Source: Candidatus Methylomirabilota bacterium
Lineage (GTDB): Bacteria > Methylomirabilota > Methylomirabilia > Rokubacteriales > DASRDR01
Direction: 5' to 3'
Length of the DNA stretch: 64,000 nucleotides
Assembly: GCA_036001225.1 (NCBI GenBank)
Contig: DASYUM010000339.1
Coordinates: 2,808 to 66,807 of the forward strand
The stretch's first letter is position 1. Each line of letters starts with the position of its first letter. Positions 36,760-55,340 of this stretch are shown piece by piece. The notes beneath the pieces were generated by a model. The model had not been told where the DNA came from. It saw only the letters and a program-made list of their open reading frames with translations, and searched no databases. A program made the position numbers and the translations under genes.

Positions 36760-37617
36760 GTGGACCAGCGGATCATCCAGCTCTACGACGACTTCACCCA
36801 CGGCCATCTCGACCGCCGGCTGTTCCTCGAGCGGCTGGCGAAGCTGGTCGGGTCGACGGCGGCGGCGCTCGTGCTGCTGCCGCAGCTCGAATCCGACTAC
36901 GCCGGCGCCCAGACCGTTCCCGAGACGGACGCCCGGATCGGGACGGAGGAGGTGACCTACCCCGGGTCCACGGGAACGGTGACGGGCTACCTCGCCCGCC
37001 CGGCCGGGGCGGCGAAGGCGCCCGGGGTCATCGTCATCCACGAGAACCGCGGGGTCCAGCCGCACATCCGGGACGTGGCCCGGCGCGCGGCTCTGGCCGG
37101 CTACGTCACGCTCGCGCCCGATCTGATGTCGGCCGTCGGCGGCACGCCGGCGAGCGAGGACGAGGCGCGGACCAGGTTCGCGCGGGTCGAGCTGCCGGTG
37201 GCGCTCGCCGACGCACTCAAGTCGATCGAGTACCTCCGCGCGCGCCCCGATGCGACCGGAAAGGTCGGCGTCGTCGGCTTCTGCTGGGGCGGCAGCCTGG
37301 TCGGCGAGATCGCGGCCGCCGGCGCCGACGTCCAGGCGGGCGTGGTCTTCTACGGAATCGCGCCGCCGCTCGACAAGGTGTCAGCCATCAAGGCGCCGCT
37401 CCTCCTCCATTACGCCGGACTCGACGACCGAGTGAACGCCACCGTGCCGCCCTTCGAGGACGCCCTGAAGAAGGCGGGGAAGACGTACACCCTTCACGTG
37501 TACGAGGGCACCAAGCACGCCTTCCACAACGACACGGCCGGCGCCCGCTACGATCCGGCGGCGGCCACCCTCGCCTGGTCGCGGACCCTCGAGTTCTTCG
37601 CCCGGACGCTGCGGTAG
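36760..37617 (+). CDS. Dienelactone hydrolase family protein
   Basis: Family-typical N-terminus [21 protein letters not shown] core motifs VVGFCWGG and HAFHND. GTG start. Confidence 0.8.
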
Positions 37618-37762
37618 CGCCGGGCCCGTACCGGGACACCGTCCAGGAACCGGTCTTCGCCGCGAGCCAGGGTGACCGCCGCTCACCGAGAAGGCGTTCG
37701 CCGGAGTCAAGAGGTGTGTCAATGAGCTTCAAGCAGCGGCCAGCTTCGGCTCGGTTTCAGGG

Positions 37763-38097
37763 CTACCGCGGCCAATACATGATCACGCCAACGCCTGCGA
37801 GGCAGATCGCACCTCCCAGGACGTCGTACCGATCGGGGGCTACGTCATCGATTCCCCAGCCCCAGAAGATCGACAGTACGACGAACCACCCCCGTAGGCG
37901 GCGTAGACCCGCCCGAAGCGCGCGGGCTGGTACGTCGGGACGATGCCGTACAGGATCAGCGTCGCCGCCCCGACAAGACCGATCCTCCAGTGAGCCCCGT
38001 TCCGCCACCACTGCCAAACGAGGTAGCCACCACCGATCTCGCAGAGGCCCGCGAGCACGAAGAGCGCGACCGACCGGCTGATCTGAGCCACGCGCAC
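37763..38097 (-). pseudogene. ynfA: YnfA (UPF0060) small membrane protein gene with a frameshift in a 5-nt G/C homopolymer (37889-37893). A sequencing error is possible
   Basis: Frame 1 reads …[14 protein letters not shown]…[10 protein letters not shown]. Frame 2 reads …[12 protein letters not shown]…MYWPR. Inserting one G restores a full-length YnfA alignment. Confidence 0.6.
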
Positions 38098-38109
38098 CTC
38101 CGGCTGGGC

Positions 38110-38598
38110 TCAGCGCAGCGCCCGCTTCAGGGTCTCCGCGAGGACACGGTCGACCCGGTCGATTTCAGCAAGGAACTGCCGCTCCTCGTCGCCCGACAGG
38201 GTCGGCTTCCAGCCGCGGCGATAAAATGCCTTCAGCCGATCGATACGAAGCTCCAGAACGGTGAGGCGACTGTTGAGGGAGAGCGCGCCTTCCTGGCGCT
38301 CTCCCTCCACGAACGCGTCCCACAGTTCCATCGCCATGAGCGTTGCGGTCTTGTCCTTTCCCGCACGACACGCAGCACGGGCCTCGGCGACCCGACCGCT
38401 CGTCTGCGCCAGGGCCTCCTCGATCTTGGCGCGCGCGGCCCCGGTCTTCTTTCCAAACGCTTCCTTGCGTTCTCCGACCTCACGGTCGACGAGCTTGAGC
38501 CACCGGTCGCACTCCTGCTCGGCCGCCCAGGCCCGGGTCTGGAGAAGCACTGCCAGGATCAGGAGAAGTCCCGTGACTGCCGTGGCCCGGCTGGTCAT
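38110..38598 (-). CDS. Hypothetical secreted protein (Sec signal peptide, all-helical, 2 Cys)
   Basis: Signal peptide MTSRATAVTGLLLILAVLLQTRAWA/AEQ. No family recognised. Local GC is lower than in the flanks. Confidence 0.55.
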   Translation of the reverse strand: MTSRATAVTGLLLILAVLLQTRAWAAEQECDRWLKLVDREVGERKEAFGKKTGAARAKIEEALAQTSGRVAEARAACRAGKDKTATLMAMELWDAFVEGERQEGALSLNSRLTVLELRIDRLKAFYRRGWKPTLSGDEERQFLAEIDRVDRVLAETLKRALR

Positions 38599-38647
38599 GA
38601 TCGGCCTCCCGTTCGCCTGTGAGGTCGCCTGCGCGCAACCAGTCGAG

Positions 38648-40321
38648 TCAACGCCGTCTCGGCCGGCCCAGCCCGGCTGCCAGTTCTTCCAACCGCTGCT
38701 GCAGCCACGCGAGGTCCTCGATCGCGTCCGTCAGATACGGGGACGCGCCACGCGCGCGGGCGACGATTCGCTGCGCCTCGGCGTTCAGCCGGGCTTGCTG
38801 CGCCACGAGACGGCGAAACCCCTCGGGCATGTCGGCGGCGAGCCGTCTCTGGCGCGCCAGGAGGCGACCGAGATCGACCAGGCCCTTGGCCGCGGTGACG
38901 ACCGCCGTCACCGCCTCCTCGGCCCGAGCCGGGGAGACCTCGCCCAGGCTGCCCAGCCAGGCGCCGATGAGGCCGAGCGTGAGGTCCTGGATCCGCCGGT
39001 CGCTCTCCTGCAGATCCTCGGAGATCTTGGGAAGGCTCTCTTTCAGCTTCAGCAAGCTGGCGATCAGATCCTGCAGCCCGTCCTGCAGGGTCTTGTAGCT
39101 GCCGGCCAGGCCGTCGTCGTCGGGAAACTCGCGCCGTCGACCGTTGAAGCGCTCGATGAGGTCCCGCAAGCCGTGCAGCAGGTCCTCGAAGCTCTTCACC
39201 AGCTCCTCGTCCGGCGCGTTGCGCACGAGGTCCTCGAAGCTGTCGAGGAGCTTCTCGAACTGATGCAACAGGTCTTCGAAGCTCTTGACCAGGGCCCAGG
39301 GAGGCGGAACGTTGATCCCCAGCGCCGCATCGAAGCTCACGAGCAGGTCGACGAGCGCGTGGAGCAGCTTCTCGAAGCTGAGGCGCAGCGGCCGGTCCTT
39401 CGGGGCGACGCGCTTCACGAGCCCCTCGAAGGTGGAGAGCAGTCGCTCGCATTCCTTGAGGCGGTTTTCGAACTGGCCCACGATCTCCGGATGCTGGGCG
39501 GCATGCTCCTTCACCAGATCCTCGAAGCTGCCGAGGAGCGTCTCCAGGTCGCGCAACCGGTCTTCGGCCCCGACCAACAGGGGCCGGTCGTTCGGCTTGA
39601 GGGGCGGCGCCGCCGGCAGCAGCCGGTCGAGCTCACCGAGGAACTCCACCAATAGAAAGGTCAGGATGCCCAGGAGCCCGTCGAAGCTCTTGACGCGATC
39701 GTAGTCGGTGGGTGTCTCGCGCTTCACCAGGTCTTCGAAGCTCTTACAGAGCTTCTCGCTTCCTCCGAGGAGCTCGAGGAAGCTCGCGACGCGGGCGCGG
39801 TCGGGCGGCAGCGGGAGCACGAGCTTCGCGAAGCTGTCGATCAGCAACAGGTGGCGCTCGACGCGCTCCTCGAAGCACTGGAGCAGCTCCGGAGGCAGTT
39901 CCGGGAGACGCCGCAGCAGATCCTCGAGGCTGAGGAGCAGCTTCTCCGCGCGGTGGAGCAGGTCTTCGAAGCTGGCGACCAGCCGGTAGAGCTCCTTGGG
40001 CCAGTTGGGCTGATTCGGCCACTCGCGCCGCAGGATCCGGTGCAGCTTGGCTTCGAACGCCGCTAAGGCGCTCTGCAGCCCGATGATCTCGTCCTGAAAC
40101 TCGTCGGCCTTGTCCTTGTCCGGGGGCGCGGCCTTCAACTTGGCCTCGGCCGCGTCGAGCTTCTCCTCGCTTTCGCGGATGTCGTCCTCTTCCTTCTTCG
40201 CCTCGTCGAAACTCGGATCGTCGAGGAGCCGCCGGTACTCGCGCAGCACGGCGCGGAGCTGGGCGCGGGCGCTCTCCAACGGCGGCCCGCCGGGCGTGGA
40301 TGTTCGTCGCCGTCGAGTCAT
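38648..40321 (-). CDS. Hypothetical 557-aa repeat protein: about ten irregularly spaced (K)SFE(D/K)L(L/V)(H/K) helical repeats between coiled-coil-like N- and C-terminal regions
   Basis: ATG 40319-40321 is preceded by GGAGGAG. SFEDLL/SFEDLV/SFEKLL/SFDGLL recur. The DNA shows matching tcgaagct(c/g)tt… repeats. No signal peptide or TM segments. Lower GC than the flanks. The plus-strand ORFs over this region are antisense artefacts. Confidence 0.65.
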   Translation of the reverse strand: MTRRRRTSTPGGPPLESARAQLRAVLREYRRLLDDPSFDEAKKEEDDIRESEEKLDAAEAKLKAAPPDKDKADEFQDEIIGLQSALAAFEAKLHRILRREWPNQPNWPKELYRLVASFEDLLHRAEKLLLSLEDLLRRLPELPPELLQCFEERVERHLLLIDSFAKLVLPLPPDRARVASFLELLGGSEKLCKSFEDLVKRETPTDYDRVKSFDGLLGILTFLLVEFLGELDRLLPAAPPLKPNDRPLLVGAEDRLRDLETLLGSFEDLVKEHAAQHPEIVGQFENRLKECERLLSTFEGLVKRVAPKDRPLRLSFEKLLHALVDLLVSFDAALGINVPPPWALVKSFEDLLHQFEKLLDSFEDLVRNAPDEELVKSFEDLLHGLRDLIERFNGRRREFPDDDGLAGSYKTLQDGLQDLIASLLKLKESLPKISEDLQESDRRIQDLTLGLIGAWLGSLGEVSPARAEEAVTAVVTAAKGLVDLGRLLARQRRLAADMPEGFRRLVAQQARLNAEAQRIVARARGASPYLTDAIEDLAWLQQRLEELAAGLGRPRRR

Positions 40322-40358
40322 CGGTCGTCTCCTCCCCGCTCGAAGCGTTGCCGGCCGT

Positions 40359-40377
40359 CCGGCGTCGCCGACGCCGG
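40359..40377. promoter_or_regulatory. Perfect 9-bp inverted repeat ccggcgtcg-c-cgacgccgg, ~45 nt upstream of the repeat-protein start and downstream of the coxL-C stop
   Basis: Read directly from the sequence. Candidate operator or hairpin. Confidence 0.3.
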
Positions 40378-40411
40378 GTGGTGAACTGTGGCGCGTGAGA
40401 ATCGACGCACC

Positions 40412-42673
40412 CTAGGCCTTCGCCGCCCGGAGGGCGCGCCAGACGCGCTCGGGGGTGAGCGGCAGGTCGCGGATGCGGACGCCGGTGGCGGCGGCGACGG
40501 CGTTGGCGATGGCCGGCGCGACCGGGACGATGCTGCCCTCGGCCACGCCCTTCGCCCCGTGGGGGCCGGGGCCGCCGCCGCCCTCGACGATCACCGCCTC
40601 GAGCGAGTCCGGCAGGTCGGAGAAGAGCGGGAGCCGGTAGTCGACGATGCTCCCGTTGACGAGCTGGCCGTCCTCGTAGACCAGCGCCTCGAAGAGCGCC
40701 GGCCCGAGGCCCATCACCACGCCGCCCAGATCCTGGCCTTCGACCCCGTCCGGGTCGAGGGCGCGGCCGGGGTCGGACACGGTCACGTAGCGATGGACGG
40801 TGAGGGCGCCCGTCTCGCGATCGACCGAGACCTCCGCCGCGCCGAGCCCGATCTCCCAGAAGCTCGCCCGGGCGCCGAGCGTGGCGCGCTCGGCCGCCGG
40901 CCGGTAGTAGCCGTGGCCGATCAGCTCGCCGCCGGCGTCGCGGAAGAAGCGCACGATGACCTCGCCGAGAGTGAGGCGCCGGTCGCCGGCGCGGACGGCG
41001 CCGTCCTCCAGGCGGCAGGCTTCCACCGCCACGCCGAGCGCCTCCGCCGCGATCGCCCGCGCCTGGTCGGCCACCTGGCGGGCCGCCGCCTGCACGGCGT
41101 GACCGAGGAGTGCGGTCCCCCGGCTGGCGTTGGTGCGCTGGTCGAAGGGCGTGACGCCGGTGTCGGGCGCCGTCACCGCCACCTGCCCGGGCGGGATCCC
41201 CAGCTCGGCCGCCGCGATCCGCGCGAGCACGCTCTGGATCCCCTGGCCGAGCTCGGCCGAGCTGGCCAGCACGGTGGCACTGCCGTCGCCGTGCAGGCGC
41301 ACGATGGCCGTCGAGGAGGTCCGGGTGCCGCCGCCGTCCTTGATCGCGCAGGCGACGCCGACCGCCCGGCCCCGCCCCGACGCTCCCGGCAGCCGCGAGA
41401 CGAGGGCCTCGAGCGCCGCGCCGAGGTCGCTGTCCACGGGCCGGTCACCCGGCGCGTACTCCTCGCCGCGCTGGAGGAGGTTCTTCCGCCGGAGGGCGAC
41501 GGGATCCATCCCGAGGGCGAGGGCGATCGCGTCCATCTGCGACTCGTACGCCCAGGCGACCTCCGGCGTGCCGAAGCCGCGGTAGGCGCCGGCCGAGACC
41601 GAGTTGGTGAAGACCGCATAGGCGTGGACCTCGACGTGCGGCACCCGGTAGGGGCCGACCAGCCGGTAGCCGGCCTTCTTGGCCATGCGCGGCTCCTGGT
41701 TCGCGTACGCCCCCGCGTCGAGGTGGATCTCACCGCGCCGGCCGAGGAGCGTGCCGTCGCGGCGCACCGCCGTCTGGATGCGCACCCGGGCGGCGTTGCG
41801 GCAAAGCGTCCGCGCCGTCTCCTCGGCCGAGTAGAGGACGCGGACGGGCGCCCAGGCCTTGCGCGAGAGCGCGGCGGCGAGCGGGATCACGGCCATCAGC
41901 TCACGGCTGCCGAAGGCGCCCCCCACGTCGGGCACGACCACCCGCACCCGGCTCTGGGGCAGGCGGAACATCTCGGCCAGCATCTGGCGCGTGGCGAACG
42001 GGTATTGGGTGCCGGCCCAGACGGTCAGCTGGCGCCCCTGGTGATGGGCGATCGCGCCGTGCGGCTCGAGCGGATGGTGGTGGACGCTGGGGAGCGTGAA
42101 GGTGTCGTCGAAGACGAGGTCGGCCTCGCGGAAGGCCGCCTCCGGGTCGCCGCGCCGGTAGGCGAAGTGATGGCAGATGTTCCGGGCCAGGTCGGGCGCC
42201 ACGTCCTGGACGTCGGGGAAGAGCGTCGAGCGGGGCCGCGCCTCGTGCAGGACGGGCGCGCCCGGCGCGAGCGCCTCGTCGATGGACCGGACGGGCGGGA
42301 GCGGCTCGTAGCGGACGGCGATCCGGCCGAGCGCCGCCTCCGCCGTCCGCGCATCGACCGCGGCGACGGCCACCACCGGCTCGCCGGCCCAGCGGACGCG
42401 GTCGATCGCGAGGAGGGGCTGGTCGCGGATCGCCTGGCCGAAGTAGGGGTCGATGTCCGCGAGATCGGCGGCGGTCAGCACGGCCACGACCCCGGGCAGC
42501 CGCTCGGCGTCGCCGGTCTCGATGGTCAGGATCCGGGCGTGGGGGTACGGGCTGCGGAGGACCTTCCCCTCCACCATGCCGGGGATCGCGAGGTCCGTGG
42601 TGTAGCGGGCGCGTCCCATCACCTTCGCGCGGGCGTCGTGCCGCTCGAACGGCGCGCCGATCGCGCCGCTCAT
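40412..42673 (-). CDS. Xanthine-dehydrogenase-family molybdopterin-binding large subunit, paralogue C (orphan: no adjacent small or FAD subunit)
   Basis: ATG 42671-42673 overlaps the upstream LLM stop (ATGA). Motifs GAYRGFGTPE and GQGIQSV. ~45% identical to paralogues A and B. Confidence 0.8.
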   Translation of the reverse strand: MSGAIGAPFERHDARAKVMGRARYTTDLAIPGMVEGKVLRSPYPHARILTIETGDAERLPGVVAVLTAADLADIDPYFGQAIRDQPLLAIDRVRWAGEPVVAVAAVDARTAEAALGRIAVRYEPLPPVRSIDEALAPGAPVLHEARPRSTLFPDVQDVAPDLARNICHHFAYRRGDPEAAFREADLVFDDTFTLPSVHHHPLEPHGAIAHHQGRQLTVWAGTQYPFATRQMLAEMFRLPQSRVRVVVPDVGGAFGSRELMAVIPLAAALSRKAWAPVRVLYSAEETARTLCRNAARVRIQTAVRRDGTLLGRRGEIHLDAGAYANQEPRMAKKAGYRLVGPYRVPHVEVHAYAVFTNSVSAGAYRGFGTPEVAWAYESQMDAIALALGMDPVALRRKNLLQRGEEYAPGDRPVDSDLGAALEALVSRLPGASGRGRAVGVACAIKDGGGTRTSSTAIVRLHGDGSATVLASSAELGQGIQSVLARIAAAELGIPPGQVAVTAPDTGVTPFDQRTNASRGTALLGHAVQAAARQVADQARAIAAEALGVAVEACRLEDGAVRAGDRRLTLGEVIVRFFRDAGGELIGHGYYRPAAERATLGARASFWEIGLGAAEVSVDRETGALTVHRYVTVSDPGRALDPDGVEGQDLGGVVMGLGPALFEALVYEDGQLVNGSIVDYRLPLFSDLPDSLEAVIVEGGGGPGPHGAKGVAEGSIVPVAPAIANAVAAATGVRIRDLPLTPERVWRALRAAKA

Positions 42674-43662
42674 GCGCCGTCGCCCAGGAGTGCCGCCGCG
42701 AACGCCCGCATCGTCGCCTCCCGGCCGCCGTCGTCGGTGCCATACGGCACGATCGCGACCTGGCCGATCCCGGTCCCCCGGAGACGCTCGACGGCCGCGC
42801 GGCAGGTGTCGGGGGCGCCGGCGAGAGCGAAGCGCTCGACCAGCCAATCGGGGACGACCCGCGCCTGGCTGGCACCCCGCTCCATGTGCTGGTAGTAGTC
42901 GTAGGACGCCCGGATCTCGGCCACGACCCGCTGCTCCTCGGCGTCCAGGTCGAACGGCAACGGCCGGTTCAGCACGCGCGCGACGTGGGCCTTGACCGCC
43001 GCGCGCGCCGCCGCGGCGTCGCCCACGGCGCAGGGGACCCAGAGCACGAGGTCGAGCGAGTCCGGATCGCGCCCGGCCTCGCGGGCGCCCGCGCGGACGG
43101 TGTCGACCGCCTGCCGGACCCGCTCGGGCACGATGCCCACCAGGACGATGACGCCGTCCGCGATCCGCCCGGCCAGGGCCAGGAGCCGCGGGCCGCTGGC
43201 GGCCACGTAGATCCGGATCCCCTCGCCGGCGGCGTGCTTGAGCCGGAGCGTTCCGGTCTCGGTCTCGACGTCGCGACCGGCCAGGAGGTCCCGCACCCGC
43301 CGAACGTCCCGCGCGAAGACGTCGAGCCGGCTCGGCTTCCTTCCCATGGTCTCGACGGCGCTGTCGCCCAGCCCGAGCCCGAGGATGACGCGGTCGGGGC
43401 ACGCCTCGTGAAGGGTGGCCAGGGCGCTGGCGACGACGGCGGGATGGCGCGTGACCAGGTTGGTGACACCGGTGCCGAGGGTGAGGCGCGTCGTCGCGAG
43501 CGCGGCGGCCGCGAGCGTGACGTAGGCCTCGCGCCAGATGAGGTGCGAGTCGCCGATCCACGCGTGGGAGAAGCCCAGCTCCTCGGTGACCCGGGCCAGG
43601 CGCACGATGGCGAGCAATGGCGCGGTGGGGAAGAGGCCGACCCCGAACGCCAGGTCGGTCAC
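42670..43662 (-). CDS. LLM-class (luciferase-like) flavin/F420-dependent oxidoreductase
   Basis: 330 aa with a TIM-barrel LLM signature (…GFSHAWIGDSHL…, …GVIVLVGIVPE…). Confidence 0.75.
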   Translation of the reverse strand: MTDLAFGVGLFPTAPLLAIVRLARVTEELGFSHAWIGDSHLIWREAYVTLAAAALATTRLTLGTGVTNLVTRHPAVVASALATLHEACPDRVILGLGLGDSAVETMGRKPSRLDVFARDVRRVRDLLAGRDVETETGTLRLKHAAGEGIRIYVAASGPRLLALAGRIADGVIVLVGIVPERVRQAVDTVRAGAREAGRDPDSLDLVLWVPCAVGDAAAARAAVKAHVARVLNRPLPFDLDAEEQRVVAEIRASYDYYQHMERGASQARVVPDWLVERFALAGAPDTCRAAVERLRGTGIGQVAIVPYGTDDGGREATMRAFAAALLGDGA

Positions 43663-45944: not shown

Positions 45945-48900
45945 CTATCTCCCCCCCGCCCGCCAGTGCCCGAAGACCGCCGTCAGCTCGGCGTAGTCCA
46001 CCGGCTTCACGAGATGCGCGTCGAAGCCCGCCTCCAGCGCCCGCCGCTGGTCCTCCGACCGACCGTAGCCGGTGAGGGCGATCAGGCGGGTGCGGCGGGC
46101 ATCGGGACTGCGCCGCACCGCCTCGGCGATGCCGTACCCATCGAGCCCGGGCAATCCGATATCCACCAGCGCGACGTCCGGGCGCAGCGCCAACAGCTTC
46201 TCCAGGCCGGTCACCCCGTCGTGCGCTTCCTCCACCTCGTACCCGTGGACCTGGAGCAAGATGCGCAGGCTGTCGCGCATGTCCTGGTTGTCCTCGATCA
46301 CCAGAACCCGGCGGCCGGGCAGCTCCGGCTGCCCTCCGGTGGCCTCGATCGGCGCCGGGGGGGCGCTCAGGAGCGGGAGGCGCACGACGAACTCGGCGCC
46401 CTGGCCGGCTCCCTCGCTGGAGGCACTCACCGTCCCGCCGTGCAGCTCGACGAGCCGCCGGACCAGGGCCAGGCCCAGGCCGAGCCCGCCCTGGGAGCGA
46501 TCGAGTGACTGACGTCCCTGGGTGAACAACTCGAACACGCGCGGCAGAAGTTCAGGCGAGAGACCGATGCCGCGGTCGCGCACGCGAAGGACGGCGGTGC
46601 CGCCGTCCCGGCCCACGTCGACCCGAATCTGGCCGCCCGGTGGGGTGTACTTCACGGCGTTGTCGAGCAAGTTCGTCACGATCTGTTCGATCCGCGCCGG
46701 ATCGGCCTCCACCCAGGCCGACTCTCCGGTGATCCCGACATCGTGCTCGCGCGTGCGCTCGGCGTGGTCGAACGCGGCCAGGCATTGCTGGGCGATGGCC
46801 TTCAGATCGATCCGTTCGCGCTGGAGGGCGATCTTGCCCGAGCTGACCCGTGACACTTCGAGGAGGTCGTCGACGAGCCGCGCCAGATGCCGGCTCTGGC
46901 GATTGATGATCGCACGCAGCTGCCCGGCGGGATCGTCCTGGCTCGCAATCCGCTCCAGCACCAGGATCGCGTTGCGAATGGCGGCCAGGGGATTACGCAG
47001 CTCGTGGCCGAGCATGGCCAGGAACTCGTCCTTCGCCTGGTTGGCTCGTTCGGCTTCGGTCCGGGCCGCCTGCTCCCGCTCGAACCGCTCGGCGTTCTCC
47101 AACGCCAACGCCGCCTGGTCGGCAAAGCCTCGGGCCAGCCGCACCTCCCCCTCGCTGAAGGTGCGGCCCAACGGGACTCCGATCCCGAGGGCCCCGATCA
47201 AGCGGCCCTTGGCGGCGAGGGGCAGCGCGAGCACTCCGCGGTGCGGCGCCTGCTCCAGCCGCCGGCGTATCTCCGGCGTGTGCTGAATCCGCGGATCGTT
47301 CAGGGCATCCGGGGTGAAGACGGGCTCCCCGGTCCGCACGGCCAGCCCCACTGTCCCCGTCCCCCGGGGCAGGGTGAGGTCCGGACCGAGCGCCGGCCCC
47401 GTCTCCCCGTACATGGCGACCGAGCTGAGGTCACCGGAGGCCGGATCCAGGCGATACACGATCGCGAGCTGGGCCCGCAAGAGTCGGCAGACGTGCTCGG
47501 CGAGCCGGGTGCCGACCTCCCGCACGTCCAGGAAGTGGGCGAGGATCCTCGCGACCGCCGCCAGCGCCTCCGCTTCGTCGCGGGCCTGGGTTTCCAGTTG
47601 ATAGAGCCGCACTTGCTGCACGACGAGGGCGAGCCGGTCGCCGACGAGCCGGAGCAGCGCCACGTCGTCGTCGCTGAAGCGCCGGGGCCGCACGCTGCCG
47701 ACATGGACCACGCCGAGCAAGCGGCCCTCGACCATCAGCGGAACGCCGAGCAAGGAATGCACCTGTCTTCGGAGGAACGGGCTCACCACCGGGAACCGGG
47801 ACACGTCTTCCACCGCGATCGGCTCTTGGCGGGCCGCCACCGCGCCGGCAAATCCCTGGCCGATCGGGATGTGGATGCCCTTGTCCTCCTCCTCTTCCCG
47901 CAGACCATCGGAGGCCGAGACGACGAGCTGGGTTCCCGTCTCGTCGAGGAGCAGGACGGTCGCGGTATCGGCGGCCAGGGCCGCCCGGACCCGCCCCAGC
48001 AACTCCCGGGGCATGTACCGGAGCTGAAGGCGGGAGAGCGCGGCGTCGCTCACCGCCTGGAGCCGACCGAGCTTCTCGGCCCCGGCTTCGGCCGCGGCGC
48101 GGGCCTGCCGCTCCCGCGCCAGCAGCACGGCCCGCTCCTGCTCCCCGCGCTGGCGCTCGATGAATTGTCCGATCTGGGTCCCGATCGTGCTCATCATCCG
48201 CAGCAGGTCGGCGTCCGGTGGCTGGATCTCGCGGCTGAACGACTCCAGCACTCCGGCCACCTCGCCCTGGGACAGGACCGGGAACGCAAAGGCTCCGTGG
48301 AGTCCCTCCCGGGCCGCGATGGGAGCCCGCGGGAAGTTGGAATCGTGGACGACGTCGGTGACCCAGACGGGCTGGCCACTCGCCCACACCCGACCGGGTA
48401 ACCCGATGCCCGGCCGGAAGGTCCGGGTTCCGCTGTCGGCTTCGAACTCGGGATACGTCAACCCGCGGGCGCGCCAGACGTCCACGCAGCGCAGCACGCC
48501 CGCGTCCGCGTCCCGGACCCACAGCGCCCCCACGTCCCAGCCGAGGCTGTCGCAGATGGCTTCCAGGACCTTGGGCGCCGCCTGGCCGAGGTCATCGGAG
48601 TCGGCCAATGCCCGAGTGACCGCGTAGTCGGCCGCTCGCCGGCGCTCCGTGATCCCCCGCTCGTGCATCACGGCCGCCAGGAGCAGCCCGCCCACCGCGA
48701 CCACGGCCATGAAGAACTGCACCAGCACGAGGCTCTCGTGCGTGTTACCGGTCGCGAACGGTCCGAAGCCGCCCCTCGTCCCCCAGATGGCGATCGCCGA
48801 GACGACGGCCGCCGTCGTCGTCGTCCCGAGCTGGCCGAAGCGGAACGCCGCCCAGATCACGAACGGAAAGACCAGGTATTCCAGGGGGTGGCCACTGTCC

Positions 48901-49526
48901 ACCGCCGGCAGTTGCCCGGCGAAGACCACCAGGCTCACCGCCGTCAGGCCCAGCACGAGGCTCCCGGCCTCGAGGAGACGGCTCGGCGACCAGCGCGGCC
49001 CACCGGCGGCCCACGCGAGCAGCAGGGGGGCCACCACCAGATCACCCAGGGCGTCGCCCAGCCACCACACCCACCAGATGCGGGTCCACGCCGACCAGGG
49101 CTGGACGCCGCCCAGGGTCAGGCTGGCGGTGCCGATGGTGGCGCTGACCGCGGTGCTCACCAGGGCGCCGAGGGTCACCAGCCCGAGAACGTCCCGCAGC
49201 CGACCGAAGGTCCGACCGGGACCCATGAGGCGCCGGAGCAAGACGGCGCCGACCACCGCCTCCAGCGTGTTGCCGGTGGCGATGCCCACCGCGGTCCCGA
49301 TGGGCTCGTGCGCCGTCAGGTTGGCGAGGAAGGCGCCCAGCCAGATACCGGGGGTCAGGCGATAGCCGAACAGCAACACCGCGGCCAGGGCGATGCCCGT
49401 GGGTGGCCAGACCACGGTCACCTGCTCGGCGACGAACGCCATGCTGAGGCCGAGCTTAGCGGCGCCGAAGTAGACGGCGGCCGCGCCCAGGCTCAGCGCG
49501 ATGTCACGAAGGGCCCGACCCCGCAT
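45945..49526 (-). CDS. Hybrid sensor histidine kinase: N-terminal multi-TM (MASE1-like) domain, tandem GAF domains, HisKA, HATPase_c, receiver
   Basis: H-box FLAMLGHELRNPLAAI. C-terminal REC domain VLVIEDNQDMRD…DVALVDIGLPGLDG. Likely start is ATG 49524-49526 (MRGRALRDIALSLGAAAVYFG…). Confidence 0.8.
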   Translation of the reverse strand: MRGRALRDIALSLGAAAVYFGAAKLGLSMAFVAEQVTVVWPPTGIALAAVLLFGYRLTPGIWLGAFLANLTAHEPIGTAVGIATGNTLEAVVGAVLLRRLMGPGRTFGRLRDVLGLVTLGALVSTAVSATIGTASLTLGGVQPWSAWTRIWWVWWLGDALGDLVVAPLLLAWAAGGPRWSPSRLLEAGSLVLGLTAVSLVVFAGQLPAVDSGHPLEYLVFPFVIWAAFRFGQLGTTTTAAVVSAIAIWGTRGGFGPFATGNTHESLVLVQFFMAVVAVGGLLLAAVMHERGITERRRAADYAVTRALADSDDLGQAAPKVLEAICDSLGWDVGALWVRDADAGVLRCVDVWRARGLTYPEFEADSGTRTFRPGIGLPGRVWASGQPVWVTDVVHDSNFPRAPIAAREGLHGAFAFPVLSQGEVAGVLESFSREIQPPDADLLRMMSTIGTQIGQFIERQRGEQERAVLLARERQARAAAEAGAEKLGRLQAVSDAALSRLQLRYMPRELLGRVRAALAADTATVLLLDETGTQLVVSASDGLREEEEDKGIHIPIGQGFAGAVAARQEPIAVEDVSRFPVVSPFLRRQVHSLLGVPLMVEGRLLGVVHVGSVRPRRFSDDDVALLRLVGDRLALVVQQVRLYQLETQARDEAEALAAVARILAHFLDVREVGTRLAEHVCRLLRAQLAIVYRLDPASGDLSSVAMYGETGPALGPDLTLPRGTGTVGLAVRTGEPVFTPDALNDPRIQHTPEIRRRLEQAPHRGVLALPLAAKGRLIGALGIGVPLGRTFSEGEVRLARGFADQAALALENAERFEREQAARTEAERANQAKDEFLAMLGHELRNPLAAIRNAILVLERIASQDDPAGQLRAIINRQSRHLARLVDDLLEVSRVSSGKIALQRERIDLKAIAQQCLAAFDHAERTREHDVGITGESAWVEADPARIEQIVTNLLDNAVKYTPPGGQIRVDVGRDGGTAVLRVRDRGIGLSPELLPRVFELFTQGRQSLDRSQGGLGLGLALVRRLVELHGGTVSASSEGAGQGAEFVVRLPLLSAPPAPIEATGGQPELPGRRVLVIEDNQDMRDSLRILLQVHGYEVEEAHDGVTGLEKLLALRPDVALVDIGLPGLDGYGIAEAVRRSPDARRTRLIALTGYGRSEDQRRALEAGFDAHLVKPVDYAELTAVFGHWRAGGR

Positions 49527-49900
49527 GAGCAGATCCGCGCCTGGCCGCCCGGGATGCGCGCGGTCGAGGGCTCCGGCAGGACCGGCGCGCCATTCCGGGG
49601 GTGTCGATGGGTTTCCCGGCGGAGGGGGGGCCAGCACGATACCTCCTTGGCTACCCTCCCCCCCGAGAGCAGCCGGGCGAGGCCAGTGAAGGCCAGCCTC
49701 GCGAACGCGGACCACAGTCTAGGGACGGCCTGGCCATTAGTCAAGAATTGGACCGATCGCCTGCGGAGGCGGATGATGCGCGCCCCGTCCCGATGTCGGC
49801 GACCCTGGCTTTTCCTGCTCGCCTCGATTTGCTGGCATGCCGCTGTCAGCATCGCGGAGCGGCCGGTCCCGGCCCCCGCCGGAAAGTGAGGCGCGCCACC

Positions 49901-51243
49901 ATGTCCAGGTGCTCGAGGCTGACTACTCCGTGGGTCGTCGCGTTTGCCGGCCTGCTGCTGACCGGGGGGAACCCGGGCCCCGCCACGGCTCAGCCGGCCA
50001 TCGCGGCCGGGAAGCCGGTCGAACTGCGGGTGGCCTGGTGGGGCTCGCAGGATCGGCACAATCGGACGATCAAGGCCATCGAGCTCTTCCAGAAGAAGTA
50101 TCCGCACATCAAGGTCAGCTACGAGTTCGCCGGCTGGCTCGATTACTGGACCAAGATGACCACTCAGGCGGCCGGGCGCAATCTGCCCGACATCATGCAG
50201 CAGGACTATGCCTACATCAGCGAGTGGTCGTCCCGCGGCTTGCTCTCGCCCCTCGACGAGTACGTCAAGAGCGGCACCATCGATACCCGCGACGTCTCGG
50301 ATCCACTCCTCCGGGGCGGTGTCGTCAACGGCAAGCTGGTGGCCATCAACCTCGGCTCCAACTCGCAGTGCTGGGTGCTCGACGTGGATGCCTTCAAGAA
50401 GGCGGGCGTGGAGCTGCCGCCCCCGAACTGGACGTGGTCCGACTTCGAGAAGATCGCCCTCACCTTGCACGAGACGCTGGGGATCTGGGGCATGGGCTCG
50501 GGCACGTGGAACGAGCAGCTCTGGGGGTCGCTCTACCTTTCGGCCGGGCAGTGGCGATACAGCGCGGACGGAAGCCGGGCCGGCTATGCCGACGACAAGC
50601 CGTTGGTGGACTACCTCAACATGCTGCTGCGGCTGCAGAAGGCCAGCGCCCTCATCCCGCGGGCCGATGAACTCTCCAGTCACAACATGGAGACCCAGGC
50701 GTGGAAGTCACCCCGATCGTCACCCGCAAGGCGGCCATGGCCTACTTCTGGAGCAACCAGGTCGTGGCCGTCTGGAAGGCGGCCGGCGGCGACGAGCGGA
50801 ACTTCGCCATGGTGCCCCTCCCCCGGGTTCCGGGCGCCAAGTCCGCGAACTACCTGAAGGCGTCGCAGTTCTGGAGCATCACCTCGCAGGCCAAGGCCCC
50901 CAAAGAGGCCGCGATGTTCATCGACTTCTTCACGAACTCCATCGAGGCCAACGACATCCTCCTGGCCGAGCGGGGGGTACCGATCTCCAGCACGGTGCGG
51001 CAGGCCCTCACGCCGAAGCTGGGCCGATCGCAGGTGGAGATGTTCGCTTACCTCGATCGGCTGGCCAAGGACGTTCAGCCCATCCCGCCACCCGATCCGC
51101 CGGGTCACACCGAGATCGTCAAGAACGTGTTCGTGCCGCAGGTGATGGATCCGGTGGCCTACGGGCGGCTGACCCCCGAGAAGGGCGCCGCCCTCTTGCG
51201 GCAGGAGGTCAACGGCATCCTCGCCGCCAAGGCGAAGAAGTAG
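49901..51243 (+). pseudogene. Sugar ABC transporter substrate-binding protein (family-1 SBP) with a frameshift near 50690-50710. A sequencing error is possible
   Basis: ATG 49901 with a signal peptide MSRCSRLTTPWVVAFAGLLLTGG. It reads in frame to …SSHNMETQAW. The C-terminal 180 aa continue in ORF 50701-51243 (…AAMAYFWSNQVVAVWKAAG…). The combined length of ~445 aa fits the family. Confidence 0.65.
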
Positions 51244-51336
51244 CACGGCGCTGCGTCGCCGGGGCGGGAACGTCAGGAAGGGGCGGCGGGCGCCGGCCAT
51301 CCCCGGCCGCCTCCAGGATGCACCGCGAGCCCAAGC

Positions 51337-52308
51337 ATGAATCGCGCGCCGGCGTCCTCCATCCCGGGCGAGGGCCTCCTGCGGGCGGGCGTCCGCGAGC
51401 GGCGCGTGGTGGCCGGCCGGGCTCGACTCCGGGCGCGCACCATCGCCGGCTACGCCTTCATCTCCCCCTGGCTGTTCGGGTTCCTCGCGCTCACCTTGTT
51501 TCCCATGGCGGCGTCGCTCTACTTCGCGTTCACCGACTACGACATCCTCACGCCGCCGCGCTGGATCGGGCTCGCGAACTTCCGCCGGATGTTCTTCGAG
51601 GATCCGCGCTACCTGCAGTCGGTCGCGGTCACCTTCTTCTACGTGGCCATCGCCGTGCCGCTGCGGCTCGCGTTCGCGCTGGCGGTGGCGATGCTGCTCA
51701 ATACTCCCCGCCGGGGTGTCAGCGTGTACCGGGCCGCCTACTACGCCCCCTCGGTGGTGGACGGCAGCGTGGCGGTGGCCGTGATGTGGCGGCAGGTGTT
51801 CGGGACGGAGGGGGTGATCAATGCCGTCCTGGCCATCCTGGGCATCCCGCCCGTACGCTGGCTCGGCGACCCCGAGGTCGCCATCTGGACGCTGATCACC
51901 CTGGCCGTCTGGCAGTTCGGGTCCCCGATGCTGATCTTCCTGGCCGGACTGCGGCAGATCCCCGCCGAGCTGTACGAGGCGGCCGCCATCGACGGCGCGG
52001 GGGCGGGGGCCCGCTTCTTCCGGATCACGTTGCCGATGCTCTCGCCGGTCACCTTCTTCAGCGTCGTGATGCAGACCATCACCGGCTTCATGGTCTTCAC
52101 CCAGGCCTTCATCGTGACCGGCGGCGGGCCGATGGACACGACCCTCCTCTATGCGCTCTACCTGTACCGGCGGGCCTTCGAGAGCTTCCAGATGGGCTAC
52201 GCCTCGGCGATGGCGTGGGCGCTGCTGCTCGTGGTGGCGTTCTTCACGGCCCTGCTGTTCAAGTCCTCCGGGTACTGGGTCTTCTACGAGGCGAAGGAGC
52301 GACGGTGA
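51337..52308 (+). CDS. Sugar ABC transporter permease (MalF/UgpA-type)
   Basis: EAA-type motif (…EAAAIDGAGAGARFFRITLP…) with 6 TM segments. The start may be the GTG at 51406 instead. Confidence 0.8.
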   Translation: MNRAPASSIPGEGLLRAGVRERRVVAGRARLRARTIAGYAFISPWLFGFLALTLFPMAASLYFAFTDYDILTPPRWIGLANFRRMFFEDPRYLQSVAVTFFYVAIAVPLRLAFALAVAMLLNTPRRGVSVYRAAYYAPSVVDGSVAVAVMWRQVFGTEGVINAVLAILGIPPVRWLGDPEVAIWTLITLAVWQFGSPMLIFLAGLRQIPAELYEAAAIDGAGAGARFFRITLPMLSPVTFFSVVMQTITGFMVFTQAFIVTGGGPMDTTLLYALYLYRRAFESFQMGYASAMAWALLLVVAFFTALLFKSSGYWVFYEAKERR

Positions 52309-52310
52309 CG

Positions 52311-53168
52311 ATGCGGCCACCGGCCCGGCGGCGGCAGCGGGCGCTCCGGACCGTGATCTACCACGGGGCCGTCGCCGGGCTGGGCTTCGCGATGCTCTAC
52401 CCGATCCTGTGGCTGTTCGCCAGCTCGTTCAAGGGCCCGGTCGAGATCTGGACGGACGTGATGTCGCTGGTGCCCCGGCGGTTCACCCCCGAGAACTACA
52501 TCAACGGGTGGGCCGGCTTCGGCGGGATCACCTTCGCCACCTTCTACAAGAACTCGCTGATCTACGCCGGGGTGGGCACGCTGGCCGCGGTGATGAGCTC
52601 GGCGGTGGTGGCGTACGGATTCGCGCGCCTCCGCTTTCCCGGGCGAGGGTTCTGGTTCACCTGCATGCTGCTGACGCTGATGCTGCCGTATCAGGTCATC
52701 ATCATTCCCCAGTACGTCTTCTTCACCAAGCTCAATCTGGTGAACACGTTCTACCCGCTGCTGCTGCCCCGCTTCTTCGGCATGGCCTTCTTCATCTTCA
52801 TGATCATGCAGTTCATCCGTGGCATCCCCAAGGAGCTGGACGAGGCGGCGGAGATCGACGGGTGCAGCCAGTTCGGGATCTTCGTCCGGATCATCCTGCC
52901 GCTGATCCGGCCGGCGTTGATCACCGCCGCCATCTTCTCGTTCTACTGGACGTGGGAGGACTTCCTCACGCCGCTGGTGTACCTCAACGAGCCGAAGCTG
53001 TACACGATCTCGGTGGCCCTCCGCTCGTTCGCGGATCCGTCGGCGGCGACCGACTGGGGCGCCATCTTCGCCATGTCGGCGCTGTCGCTGGTCCCGGTGT
53101 TCGTCGTCTTCATCGTCTTCCAGCGGTACCTGGTCCAGGGCATCAGCACCACCGGGATGAAAGGATAG
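52311..53168 (+). CDS. Sugar ABC transporter permease (MalG/UgpE-type)
   Basis: ATG 52311, 12 nt after AAGGAG. Motif EAAEIDGCSQFGIFVRIILPLIRPAL. Confidence 0.85.
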   Translation: MRPPARRRQRALRTVIYHGAVAGLGFAMLYPILWLFASSFKGPVEIWTDVMSLVPRRFTPENYINGWAGFGGITFATFYKNSLIYAGVGTLAAVMSSAVVAYGFARLRFPGRGFWFTCMLLTLMLPYQVIIIPQYVFFTKLNLVNTFYPLLLPRFFGMAFFIFMIMQFIRGIPKELDEAAEIDGCSQFGIFVRIILPLIRPALITAAIFSFYWTWEDFLTPLVYLNEPKLYTISVALRSFADPSAATDWGAIFAMSALSLVPVFVVFIVFQRYLVQGISTTGMKG

Positions 53169-53179
53169 GCCGGGACTCC

Positions 53180-54199
53180 ATGGCGCCCCCGGTACGGTTC
53201 TCGGTCATCGGCGTCAACCACAACCACATCTACGGCCAGACCAACCTGCTGCTCCGGGCGGGGGCCGAGCTGGCCTCCTTCTTCGCCGAGGAGCCCGACC
53301 TGGCCGCCCAGTTCGGCAGCCGGCATCCGCAGGCCAAGCCGGTGGGCGACCGGCGGGAGATCCTGGAGGATCCGAGCATCCACCTCGTCGTCAGTGCGGC
53401 CATCCCCTGCGAGCGCGCTCCGCTGGGCGTGGAAGCCATGCGCCACGGCAAAGACTACATGAGCGACAAGCCGGCCTTCACCACGCTGGAGCAGCTGGCC
53501 GAGGCGCGCCGGGTCCAGGCCGAGACCCGCCGCATCTTCTCGGTGTGCTTCAGCGAGCGGTTCGAGAACCCGGCCACGGTCCGGGCCGGCGAGTTGATCC
53601 GGAGCGGCGCCATCGGCCAGGTCGTCCAGACCGTCGGTCTGGGCCCGCACCGGATCAACGCGGCGAGCCGCCCGCCGTGGTTCTTCAAGCGGGCCCAGTA
53701 CGGCGGCATCCTCACCGACATCGCGTCACACCAGGCGGATCAGTTTCTCTTCTTCACCGGCTCGACCCGGGCCGAGGTGGTGGCGGCCCAGGTGGCCAAC
53801 TGGAAGTTCCCGCAGTGGCCGGAGCTGGAGGATTTCGGCGAGATGCTGCTGCGCGGCGACGGGGGAACCGGCTACGTGCGGGTGGACTGGTACACCCCCG
53901 ACGGGCTGAGCACGTGGGGCGACGGCCGCCTGGTGATCCTCGGCACGGAGGGTTACATCGAGCTTCGGAAGTACGTGGACGTCACCGGACGTCCGGGGGG
54001 GAATCACCTGTTCCGGGTTGACCGGGCGGGGATGCACTACGAGGGCGGCAGCGGCGGCGATCTGCCCTACGGTCGGCAACTCGTCGCCGATGTCGTCAAC
54101 CGGACCGAGACCGCCATGACCCAGGCCCACTGCTTCCTGGCTTCCCAACTGGCGCTGGAAGCCGAGGCCAAGGCGGTGCGGCTCGGGCACCTTCGCTGA
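53180..54199 (+). CDS. Gfo/Idh/MocA-family oxidoreductase
   Basis: The real start is MAPPVRFSVIGVNHNHIYG at ATG 53180, with a Rossmann N-terminus. The long ORF in the track is an artefact. Confidence 0.75.
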   Translation: MAPPVRFSVIGVNHNHIYGQTNLLLRAGAELASFFAEEPDLAAQFGSRHPQAKPVGDRREILEDPSIHLVVSAAIPCERAPLGVEAMRHGKDYMSDKPAFTTLEQLAEARRVQAETRRIFSVCFSERFENPATVRAGELIRSGAIGQVVQTVGLGPHRINAASRPPWFFKRAQYGGILTDIASHQADQFLFFTGSTRAEVVAAQVANWKFPQWPELEDFGEMLLRGDGGTGYVRVDWYTPDGLSTWGDGRLVILGTEGYIELRKYVDVTGRPGGNHLFRVDRAGMHYEGGSGGDLPYGRQLVADVVNRTETAMTQAHCFLASQLALEAEAKAVRLGHLR

Positions 54200-54222
54200 T
54201 CCGCGGAGCAACCGGAGGCACG

Positions 54223-55287: not shown

Positions 55288-55340
55288 ATCCCAAAATCGG
55301 ACGACGACCGCAGGTGCGGGGCCAAGTAACGAGCATAGCG

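Follow-up and report, generated by a model that had tools for sequence, protein, structure and literature searches.

Between two groups of catabolic genes, within a 64,000-nt window (the whole stretch of DNA that was analysed) from a soil bacterium of the Methylomirabilota (Rokubacteria), three genes follow one another on the minus strand. The first, here called rep557 (38648–40321), encodes a repeat protein of 557 aa; it starts with an ATG at 40321 preceded 8–9 nt upstream by GGAGGAG, ends with a stop codon at 38648–38650 and shows a coding-type GC pattern (GC1 0.74, GC2 0.39 and GC3 0.89). After a gap of 49 bp comes sec162 (38110–38598), the gene for a 162-aa protein with a predicted signal peptide and, 12 bp further on, ynfA (UPF0060; 37763–38097), which was recognised by Pfam and NCBIfam matches and is a pseudogene at this locus. 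No terminator is predicted between rep557 and sec162. The ORF calls agree with the gene coordinates and the 49-bp spacing given in an earlier note on this DNA. Genes for a Mo-hydroxylase and a luciferase-like monooxygenase flank the segment at one end, and genes for a bicupin and a dienelactone hydrolase (DLH) at the other. Its nearest relatives, the loci L021 and L022, are arranged identically; the closest DLH orthologue after these (L023/L024, 82% identity) lies in a wholly different context.

The lower GC content that the earlier note had perceived here is borne out by three measures. In 2.5-kb windows, the GC minimum of the window falls at this locus (0.675 vs 0.723 overall) and so does the largest tetranucleotide distance (z = 3.3), while GC3 is 0.89 in rep557, 0.79 in sec162 and 0.77–0.83 in ynfA, against a reference of 0.938±0.020 obtained from 26 genes. 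Much of the dip over rep557 is due to its GC2 of 0.39, which comes from a composition rich in Leu, Glu, Asp, Lys and Phe. Given the deviation at synonymous sites and the position between catabolic genes, a foreign origin of the segment, at which the note had hinted, is plausible. Another low-GC zone of the window extends from 49 to 55 kb. An Rfam scan of the region from 36.5 to 41.5 kb returned sub-threshold noise from miRNA models only.

Between the stop of the Mo-hydroxylase gene (40412) and the start of rep557 there is a 9-bp inverted repeat at 40359–40377 (CCGGCGTCG-c-CGACGCCGG). As the note had described, the repeat is present and perfect, but its occurrence is at chance level: the window contains 9 such inverted repeats, and Markov shuffles yield 6.2±3.2. 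Folded as RNA, the region gives z = 0.03, the relative L021 (99.8% identical) carries a mutation in one arm and no T-tract is found; an operator or terminator role was consequently discarded.

The sec162-ynfA unit

The protein encoded by sec162 begins with a classical n-h-c signal peptide, MTSRATAVTGLLLILAVLLQTRAWA followed by AEQE, with cleavage between AWA and AE, and this pattern is conserved in 23 homologues. The Kyte-Doolittle 19-mer maximum (1.85) corresponds to residues 1–19. With its n-h-c signal and AxA cleavage motif, sec162 is predicted to be exported by the Sec pathway. The mature protein, presumably periplasmic, is a predicted five-helix bundle that carries two invariant cysteines, C30 and C77, and would contain a disulfide. 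Searches of Pfam, NCBIfam, PADLOC and PHROGs assigned it to no family and gave only sub-threshold coiled-coil noise, so that its previous description as secreted, helical and familyless stands. As a candidate periplasmic stress or chaperone protein of the Spy/CpxP/ZraP (LTXXQ) kind it was rejected, since the LTXXQ/CpxP HMM did not match.

YnfA (UPF0060) is a small membrane protein with four TM segments. The gene had been taken as ynfA, and a match in two pieces upholds that identity, but it is not intact: a 1-nt deletion in the G-run at approximately 37889–37893 splits it into two minus-strand ORFs. The N-terminal part (37840–38097) covers positions 3–65 of the profile (PF02694/NF002586) with an E-value of 2e-23, and the C-terminal part, in another frame (37763–38017), covers positions 65–106 with an E-value of 6e-12. 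The deletion was placed by alignment with ynfA from L008 and L010; in L008–L011 the orthologues that follow sec162 are all intact and 109 aa long. Both L021 and L022, which come from independent metagenome assemblies, have the identical deletion, which is thus present in three independent assemblies.

At the DNA level, the sec162-ynfA unit is 88–90% identical to loci of other Rokubacteria that have different flanks. According to blastn boundaries and a three-way alignment, similarity runs on the minus strand over about 0.9 kb (37706–38624), from around 25 nt before the sec162 ATG to around 55 nt past the ynfA stop, and rep557 is not reached. Elsewhere the unit occurs in three different flanking contexts, among them genes of an IS256-type transposase and of IS21 (L008/L009) and a mer operon (L010). 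Judging from these alignments and contexts, sec162-ynfA is a mobile two-gene cassette, evolutionarily independent of rep557. None of the libraries searched, Pfam and NCBIfam among them, annotates YnfA as paired with a periplasmic helical protein encoded upstream.

Anatomy of the rep557 protein

Three parts, all encoded on the minus strand, can be distinguished in rep557. The N-terminal cap (residues 1–108; 39998–40321) consists, in the AlphaFold2 model, of three long charged helices (15–34, 36–64 and 69–100) and includes a family-conserved LRxxLRExRRRL motif, in which L22, L26, R27, R30 and R31 are invariant in the family alignment. The repeat array (residues 109–396; 39134–39997) is made of nine 32-residue units, corresponding to helices H4–H12. 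The C-terminal cap (residues 397–557; 38648–39133) contains five modelled helices of 23–27 residues that lack the SFEDLL motif, and finishes with a helix of the family-conserved pattern YLxDAxEDLxWLQxRL, with A533, D536 and W539 invariant in that alignment.

Each repeat unit comprises one helix of about 27 residues (25–30) followed by a Pro-containing loop. Every helix holds two S-F-E-D-L-L/V half-motifs, 14 residues apart and heptad-phased. The repeats had been called irregularly spaced; on the contrary, half-motifs lie 14 and 18 residues apart in regular alternation, prolines recur about every 32 residues, and there is a single 7-residue loop insertion after unit 4. The strict motif SFE(D/K)L(L/V) occurs 7 times and half-motifs approximately 17 times. 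The repeat itself, as the note had proposed, is real both in the protein and in the DNA: a unit centred on CTCGAAGCT occurs 12 times in the gene, whose DNA repeat families D1–D6 are spaced by multiples of ~42–54 and 90–96 nt, and the repeat positions are kept in homologues 27–41% identical. A logo of 66 motifs from the family and 698 from other proteins reads S, F, E, D, L, L, with position +6 basic (K 0.30, H 0.29, R 0.23) and the second S-F-E-D-L at +14. The net charge is -16 for the whole protein and -14 for the repeat region.

Neither a signal peptide nor a TM segment is found in any of eight full-length family members. In rep557, for which their absence had already been pointed out, the best Kyte-Doolittle 19-mer scores 1.65; this stretch contains three acidic residues and is not conserved among homologues. 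From its sequence, rep557 is most likely cytoplasmic.

A rare family and a wider repeat

The full-length rep557 family is very small, with about 9–13 members among 1.84 billion representative proteins; full-length homologues are conserved at 27–41% identity, non-repeat caps included. Three fragments (P0052, P0064 and P0179) match the C-terminal cap alone. Profile scans yielded one locus in genome contigs, from the same Rokuibacteriota lineage as L001, and two weak repeat-only matches in metagenome contigs. Without the caps, the repeat motif is present in ~150 other proteins, mostly secreted or surface proteins, which share with rep557 the pattern (L)(L)xSFEDLL(K/R)xQxxLLxSFEDLLK (HMM E-values down to 1e-33). 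For instance, P0007, P0009, P0055 and P0056 have in common with rep557 the motif and the 14-residue half-spacing, and SFEDLL repeats also occur in proteins with PA14, CARDB, dockerin, FG-GAP or VWA domains (P0054, P0058, P0060–P0063 and P0067), one of them from Candidatus Methanofastidiosia. These proteins differ from the rep557 family in having the repeat only, in the Gln found at position +8 where the family has Leu or Phe, and in their N-termini, since 81 out of 141 begin with a signal peptide or TM-like segment compared with none of the eight full-length family members. The shrimp protein P0050 (1960 aa, 21 matching stretches) was ignored because it looks like a translated eukaryotic tandem repeat.

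The AlphaFold2 model of rep557, built on a 5-sequence alignment, has a pLDDT of 87.8 and a pTM of 0.81 and displays 17 helices of 20–32 residues. Foldseek agrees with this picture, its top structural matches being helical repeat proteins designed de novo. As modelled, rep557 belongs to the α-solenoid fold class, which is a structural kind and not a homologous family. Designed helical repeat proteins of the DHR/THR type (e.g. THR5, PDB 8ga7, and HR00C3, PDB 5k7v) and the designed single-chain antiparallel coiled-coil protein sc-apCC-6 (PDB 8qad) are indeed the closest known proteins. However, rep557 is natural, is only 10–14% identical to them and adds non-repeat caps at both ends and one irregular loop. 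A profile search of PDB sequences found the designed sc-apCC-6 proteins (E-value 2e-12) together with weak coiled-coil matches, all of which were taken as compositional rather than as kinship. The likeness of rep557 to designed proteins lies in periodicity and composition, not in common descent.

With respect to natural families, the view that rep557 belongs to none that is known has held up: apart from sub-threshold coiled-coil noise, no curated match was obtained in Pfam, NCBIfam, PADLOC, PHROGs or PDB sequences. The PADLOC and PHROGs signals were of the coiled-coil type and below threshold (LmuB, 12.9 bits; phrog_7569, 18.7 bits), and membership of an anti-phage defence or phage family was rejected. 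Natural solenoids of the HEAT/ARM/TPR kind (exportins, VPS35, the TSC2 N-terminus, separase) differ in that none of their Pfam models matches and in that the rep557 unit, a single helix of 32 residues duplicated internally at 14 residues, bears the SFEDLL signature and is far more regular than theirs; HEAT, ARM, TPR and Sel1 models gave no hit at E≤1 for rep557 and none at E≤10 for eight homologues. A canonical long coiled coil, either SMC/Rad50-like or tropomyosin-like, was discarded on the grounds that the helices are only 20–32 residues long and broken by Pro loops; NCBIfam models related to Rad50 and SMC reach 10–14 bits against cut-offs of 300–700. DUF5344 (PF17279) scores 14.5 bits on rep557 (E-value 0.054), under its 27-bit cut-off, and 33.7 bits over 66 residues of the homologue P0002, above it, most likely through helical-hairpin composition. 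DUF8042 (PF26154) appears in precomputed annotations of rep557 and several homologues, flagged in every case as "faint" (no single hit ≤0.001). We take both DUFs to be families of unknown function, and neither would explain rep557. A literature search found nothing on DUF8042 or SFEDLL.

Discussion

How might such a protein work? In the arrangement suggested by the heptad phase, the Phe and the two Leu residues of each motif would occupy positions a, d and e and build a hydrophobic core between neighbouring antiparallel helices, the Ser, being small, would sit where the helices touch, i/i+4 salt bridges would link Glu (+2) and Asp (+3) to the basic residues (+6 and +7), and the proline loops would punctuate the helices. 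Such a core, the salt bridges and the loops would make the SFEDLL motif a structural building block instead of a ligand site. The product would be an unusually idealised, rigid and mildly acidic rod or solenoid, a shape that we deduce from the heptad phase and not from the model. Variable surface positions, together with the conserved terminal caps, would give binding specificity along its surface. By default, the predicted α-solenoid fold would suggest a scaffold or adaptor to which other macromolecules bind, and rep557 is most likely a cytoplasmic structural scaffold.

Do the three genes constitute a functional unit? The earlier note had favoured a horizontally acquired module with a co-encoded secreted partner; in such a module rep557 would be the scaffold, sec162 the secreted partner and YnfA the membrane component. 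The genes are indeed on the same strand with gaps of 49 and 12 bp and no predicted terminator, GC3 of all three is below that of the flanks, the arrangement is kept in L021 and L022, and in L019/L020 the stop codon of a distant rep557 homologue overlaps the start codon of the next gene, which encodes a secreted helical protein that contains Cys. However, L021, L022 and the window, the only places where the three genes are together, represent the same population (at least 99.6% identical) and do not count as independent; the L019 protein has no homology to sec162 (probability of 2.5% in hhalign); rep557 is predicted to be cytoplasmic while sec162 would be exported; the homology of the cassette ends short of rep557; and ynfA is broken here. 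Above all, the repeat protein occurs in other genomes without the secreted partner, an observation that the note itself had named as contrary to its proposal: neither sec162 nor ynfA is found beside repeat homologues in any of seven independent contexts (L001/L014, L005, L006, L007, L017, L018 and L019). Conversely, sec162 is present without the repeat gene in three other contexts (L008/9, L010/11 and L012/13), usually with an intact 109-aa ynfA. All-against-all ORF BLAST over nine loci identified no conserved neighbour of the repeat family except FtsX in two of them, and the upstream genes of L001 and L006, which lack Pfam matches, turned out to be unrelated. We therefore regard a three-component module as very unlikely. 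The arrangement is probably a lineage-specific juxtaposition of two unrelated units, rep557, as a cytoplasmic solenoid scaffold, and the sec162-ynfA cassette. The cassette would have landed beside rep557 only in this lineage, ynfA then being inactivated by the 1-nt deletion. Since rep557 and sec162 are read in the same direction and the 49 bp between them hold no predicted terminator, they may be co-transcribed here, and a functional link may have been acquired secondarily in this lineage.

Other roles for rep557 can be envisaged. Its family might serve MacB/FtsX-type (type VII) ABC transporters as cytoplasmic partners with an accessory or regulatory role, given that the L017 homologue is preceded on its own strand by an FtsX/MacB_PCD permease gene whose end lies 32 bp upstream, that a MacA-FtsX-FtsX-ABC cluster lies ~1.2 kb downstream in L019/L020 and that the FtsX proteins of both loci are 37% identical. 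We consider this unlikely, since the association is seen in only 2 of 8 independent contexts, the L019 cluster is on the opposite strand and no FtsX homologue was detected in the 64-kb window by tblastn or in L001, L005, L006, L007 and L018. Head-to-tail self-assembly through the terminal caps, the most family-specific parts of the protein, into filaments or lattices with a cytoskeletal or structural role seems similarly improbable: the nearest structural analogues do include designed filament and cage blocks (DHF58, THR blocks and a Zn-induced fibre), but they were engineered to assemble and the likeness reflects the repeat fold only, and neighbours related to the cytoskeleton or cell division are lacking. 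The Glu and Asp present in every half-motif, the net charge of the repeat region and the His that 29% of family motifs carry at +6 could be read as arrayed sites (E-x3-H when His is present) for metal or cation binding or buffering, a reading to which the Met/His- or Asp/Glu/His-rich segments of the secreted P0009, P0055 and P0056 and the mer operon adjoining the cassette in L010 would add. Nevertheless, position +6 is merely basic, with K, R and H interchangeable, an i/i+4 salt bridge fits better, His amounts to 1.4% of rep557 compared with a genome average of 2.1%, and metal-handling genes do not recur beside family members, all of which makes a metal-related function quite unlikely. Finally, the rarity of the family, the scrambled and apparently frameshifted C-terminal parts of P0005 and P0006 and the transposase-like genes near several homologues could suggest a decaying or spurious repetitive ORF. 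An intact frame of 557 codons with a strong SD and coding-type GC1/2/3, conservation that extends over the full length and into the non-repeat caps, a highly confident AlphaFold2 model and a protein identical or near-identical in three assemblies make that extremely unlikely.

Beyond the scaffold reading of rep557, we would tentatively go one step further, with slightly less than even confidence, and propose that SFEDLL defines a previously undescribed class of natural helical repeats. Its 14+18-residue, heptad-phased single-helix module would serve in cytoplasmic solenoids and also, in surface proteins of bacteria and archaea, as a stalk or spacer, and would converge closely on the rules of de novo helical-repeat design; the rep557 members would be extremely idealised and probably hyper-stable scaffolds, with MacB/FtsX-type transporters as a possible partner. 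Should the model prove correct, the architecture of the natural protein rep557 could hardly be told apart from that of computationally designed helical repeats. Such a natural idealised scaffold would be of interest for repeat-protein evolution and design, as would the use of one repeat module in cytoplasmic as well as surface proteins, bacterial and archaeal. For annotation purposes, the locus adds a rare orphan family within a wider repeat class that has no usable curated model, and a separate, putatively mobile two-gene unit of Rokubacteria, sec162-ynfA, whose ynfA is a pseudogene here. As a juxtaposition, the locus would reveal no new multi-gene system, and the presence of rep557 beside the cassette would be a chance neighbourhood. 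Two distant members of the family, P0047 (L017) and P0049 (L019), speak against a mere scaffold: both are adjacent to homologous MacB/FtsX-type permease genes, which may indicate a more particular function than a scaffold would account for.

A regular repeat and its predicted fold

The gene rep557 (38648-40321, minus strand), whose ATG is preceded by GGAGGAG, encodes a 557-aa SFEDLL-repeat protein. The repeats described in an earlier note are seen in both DNA and protein: a CTCGAAGCT-centred unit occurs in 12 copies in the gene, and in the product the strict motif SFE[DK]L[LV] occurs seven times and the half-motif (a single S-F-E-D-L-L/V stretch, two per 32-residue unit) about 17 times. The same note called them irregularly spaced; we find instead that half-motif spacing alternates between 14 and 18 residues and that prolines recur at ~32-residue intervals. 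Residues 109-396 form nine stacked 32-residue units with the pattern xxLVKSFEDLLHxxEKLLxSFEDLVKxxxPxx, interrupted by one 7-residue loop insertion. Because DNA identity among the copies is only 61-75% and the array aligns column-for-column with homologues, it is old and kept by selection, not the product of recent duplication.

The AlphaFold2 model, obtained from a 5-sequence alignment (pLDDT 87.8, pTM 0.81), contains 17 helices of 20-32 residues each, three N-terminal, nine in the repeat and five C-terminal. With a pI of 5.3 and a net charge of -16, to which the repeats contribute -14, the protein is mildly acidic; as already supposed, it has neither a signal peptide nor a credible TM segment. 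In a PDB profile search it matched designed sc-apCC-6 proteins (E 2e-12), which resemble it in periodicity and composition although identity to structure/PDB matches is low, in the 9-15% range; we read this likeness as analogy through those two properties and not as homology.

A logo built from 66 rep557-family motifs and 698 motifs of other proteins gives S, F, E, D, L and L, followed at +6 by K, H or R in about equal shares, each of them basic; the motif recurs at +14. Judging from heptad phase, F, L and L would occupy positions a, d and e and form the inter-helix core, Glu +2 and Asp +3 could make i/i+4 salt bridges with basic residues at +6 and +7, and the Ser would provide a small side chain at the contact. 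Read in this way, the SFEDLL motif would be structural.

Relatives of rep557

The view that rep557 belongs to no established family holds across Pfam, NCBIfam, PADLOC and PHROGs, where zero models match; PF26154 (DUF8042) is listed in precomputed annotations, always graded "faint". A word-indexed search returned 9 relatives, the top non-self match at 41% identity, and an HMM search run exhaustively over 1.84 billion representatives gave 163 matches. Only about 9-13 of these are full-length, with both caps, the non-repeat helices flanking the array (P0001, P0002, P0004, P0046, P0008, P0047, P0006, P0048 and P0049, together with fragments); all remaining matches have the repeat alone in common with rep557. 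Signal-peptide or TM-like N-termini are found in 81 of 141 repeat-only proteins versus none of eight full-length members. Among 185,579 species-representative genomes scanned, one rep557-family locus turned up, in a Rokuibacteriota MAG. Alpha-solenoid repeat proteins are a well-known kind; neither the single-helix SFEDLL repeat of 32 residues nor the full-length family with its caps seems to have been described in the libraries and literature searched.

Some repeat-only matches are secreted SFEDLL-repeat proteins in which a beta domain forms the C-terminal part (P0007, P0009, P0055 and P0056), and others are large proteins of the cell surface that contain PA14, CARDB, dockerin, FG-GAP or VWA domains; at least one SFEDLL-repeat surface protein is archaeal (Candidatus Methanofastidiosia). 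In P0054, P0057, P0058, P0060-P0063 and P0067, PA14 domains are bordered by SFEDLL(K/R)xQxxLLxSFEDLL hairpin modules, which also occur together with CARDB, dockerin, FG-GAP, VWA and prenyltransferase-like parts. The repeat in these surface proteins is covered by zero Pfam models. Between repeats and beta domain, P0009, P0055 and P0056 have Met/His-rich (e.g. PMPGHSMDMPHMMPP) or extremely Asp/Glu/His/Tyr-rich segments, reminiscent, by analogy, of periplasmic metal-binding proteins. In P0005 (L006 1678-3342) and P0006, the C-terminal third appears out of frame and is Arg/Pro/Gly-rich, with the conserved final helix back in place at the extreme end; an alternative L006 frame (2753-3391) matches the segment that P0005 misses relative to other homologues. 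These features suggest frameshifts or sequencing errors.

The sec162-ynfA cassette

Downstream of rep557, after a 49-bp gap, lies sec162 (38110-38598, minus strand), and 12 bp beyond it ynfA (YnfA/UPF0060, minus strand), split into ORFs 37840-38097 and 37763-38017. The three genes are thus adjacent as originally described, but ynfA, compared with intact 109-aa orthologues, lacks one nucleotide of a G-run (TACGGGGG-TGG, ~37889-37893), a 1-nt deletion that breaks its frame. Since the identical deletion occurs in two independent JGI metagenome assemblies (L021 and L022), ynfA is a real pseudogene and not an assembly error.

The 162-aa sec162 product has a classical signal peptide ending in AWA, before AE, and two invariant cysteines. 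Its AF2 model is a confident five-helix bundle (pLDDT 90.6) with structural likeness to generic bundles only, and it has 36 relatives, up to 93% identical. DNA of the window (37706-38624) is 88-90% identical to that of L008-L011 (L008 1101-2005; L009 5088-5992; L010 3787-4670; L011 1629-2512), from ~25 nt before the sec162 ATG to ~55 nt beyond the ynfA stop, and the similarity stops short of rep557. There sec162 is followed by an intact 109-aa ynfA, without a rep557 homologue, beside an IS256-type transposase (L008/L009) or a mer operon (L010/L011), while L012 has sec162 without either. On sequence comparison, the pair behaves as what may be a ~0.9-kb mobile or recombining unit. At this DNA identity three flank types are seen: the window locus, IS256-type/IS21 transposase genes and a merR-merT-merP-merB cluster. 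JGI sample 3300036852 holds both L009 (intact sec162-ynfA with transposases) and L022 (rep557-sec162-frameshifted ynfA).

Possible roles of rep557

Do rep557, sec162 and ynfA form a horizontally acquired module, as first proposed? Their adjacency invites the idea, which did not survive comparison of loci: rep557 homologues occur in seven independent contexts (L001/L014, L005, L006, L007, L017, L018 and L019/L020) from which sec162 and ynfA are absent. By tblastn, L001-7 and L014-20 hold only the repeat gene, L008-13 only sec162/ynfA, and only L021 and L022 hold both; these two are 99.6-99.8% identical to the window across 15-19 kb and so represent the same population. A true three-gene module is therefore very unlikely. 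The reading with the best support is that two units came to lie side by side by chance in one Rokubacteria lineage: rep557, an orphan gene whose product is a cytoplasmic alpha-solenoid of highly idealised form, and a mobile periplasmic-protein/ynfA cassette whose ynfA is now decaying. A role for rep557 as MacB/FtsX accessory is also unlikely. In an all-against-all ORF BLAST across loci, the one neighbour in common was a permease of MacB/FtsX type, encoded in L017 and L019 (37% identical to each other).

Metal binding might be imagined from the His- and acid-rich segments of some secreted relatives, which have the repeat alone in common with rep557, and is improbable for rep557 itself. A self-assembling filament is likewise unlikely, and that rep557 is a non-functional ORF is improbable. 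For the orphan alpha-solenoid, a structural scaffold or adaptor is inferred as the most likely function.

The permease genes (L017 1781-2911; L019 5541-7849) adjoin the two most divergent full-length members. In L019 (3271-4110) and L020 (2638-3477), a 279-aa secreted protein comes straight after the distant rep557 homologue P0049, stop and start adjacent, so that a repeat-protein gene precedes a secreted helical protein as at the window locus. It is built from two helical repeats of ~95 residues, both Cys-flanked, followed by a Cys-rich tail (CKCHPCTCSPCTCH); as a sec162 relative it was rejected (hhalign probability 2.5%).

Base composition and flanking genes

The reduced GC noted earlier persists under windowed analysis. 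Across the 64 kb, GC in 2.5-kb windows is lowest at 37501-40500 (0.675 versus 0.723), where tetranucleotide distance is also greatest (z 3.3, inflated by the internal repeat). GC3 is reduced to 0.89 in rep557, 0.79 in sec162 and 0.77-0.83 in ynfA, against 0.938 +/- 0.020 in reference genes (n=26); the rep557 GC2 of 0.39 is due to amino-acid composition. These deviations make a foreign origin of the region plausible, more clearly for the cassette; no empty site showing insertion was found.

Upstream of rep557, the perfect 9-bp inverted repeat that had been pointed out is present (40359-40377) but shows no sign of function: the window holds 9 such repeats versus 6.2 +/- 3.2 expected, the region gives no fold signal (z 0.03) and no promoter or terminator consensus, and in L021 one palindrome arm is mutated.

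Catabolic genes flank the rep557 region on both sides. Upstream, the same minus strand encodes a luciferase-like monooxygenase as well as a Mo-binding subunit of xanthine-dehydrogenase type (40412-42721). On the downstream side of the cassette comes a convergent dienelactone hydrolase gene (36760-37617), its product 100% identical to an NCBI protein of a Methylomirabilota (Rokubacteria) MAG, and farther on, bicupin and EutA-like protein genes. In a second lower-GC zone (49500-55300, GC 0.677-0.689) lie genes for an ABC transporter of sugar type and for two GFO/IDH/MocA oxidoreductases; the solute-binding-protein gene there appears fragmented, the SBP_bac_1 match being confined to the C-terminal part, in a 180-aa ORF (50701-51243). 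A large hybrid sensor kinase (45945-49715, minus strand) with MASE1, three GAF domains, HisKA, HATPase and receiver is encoded upstream of, and on the same strand as, the amidohydrolase/LLM/Mo-hydroxylase gene run, and is a candidate for regulating these catabolic genes.
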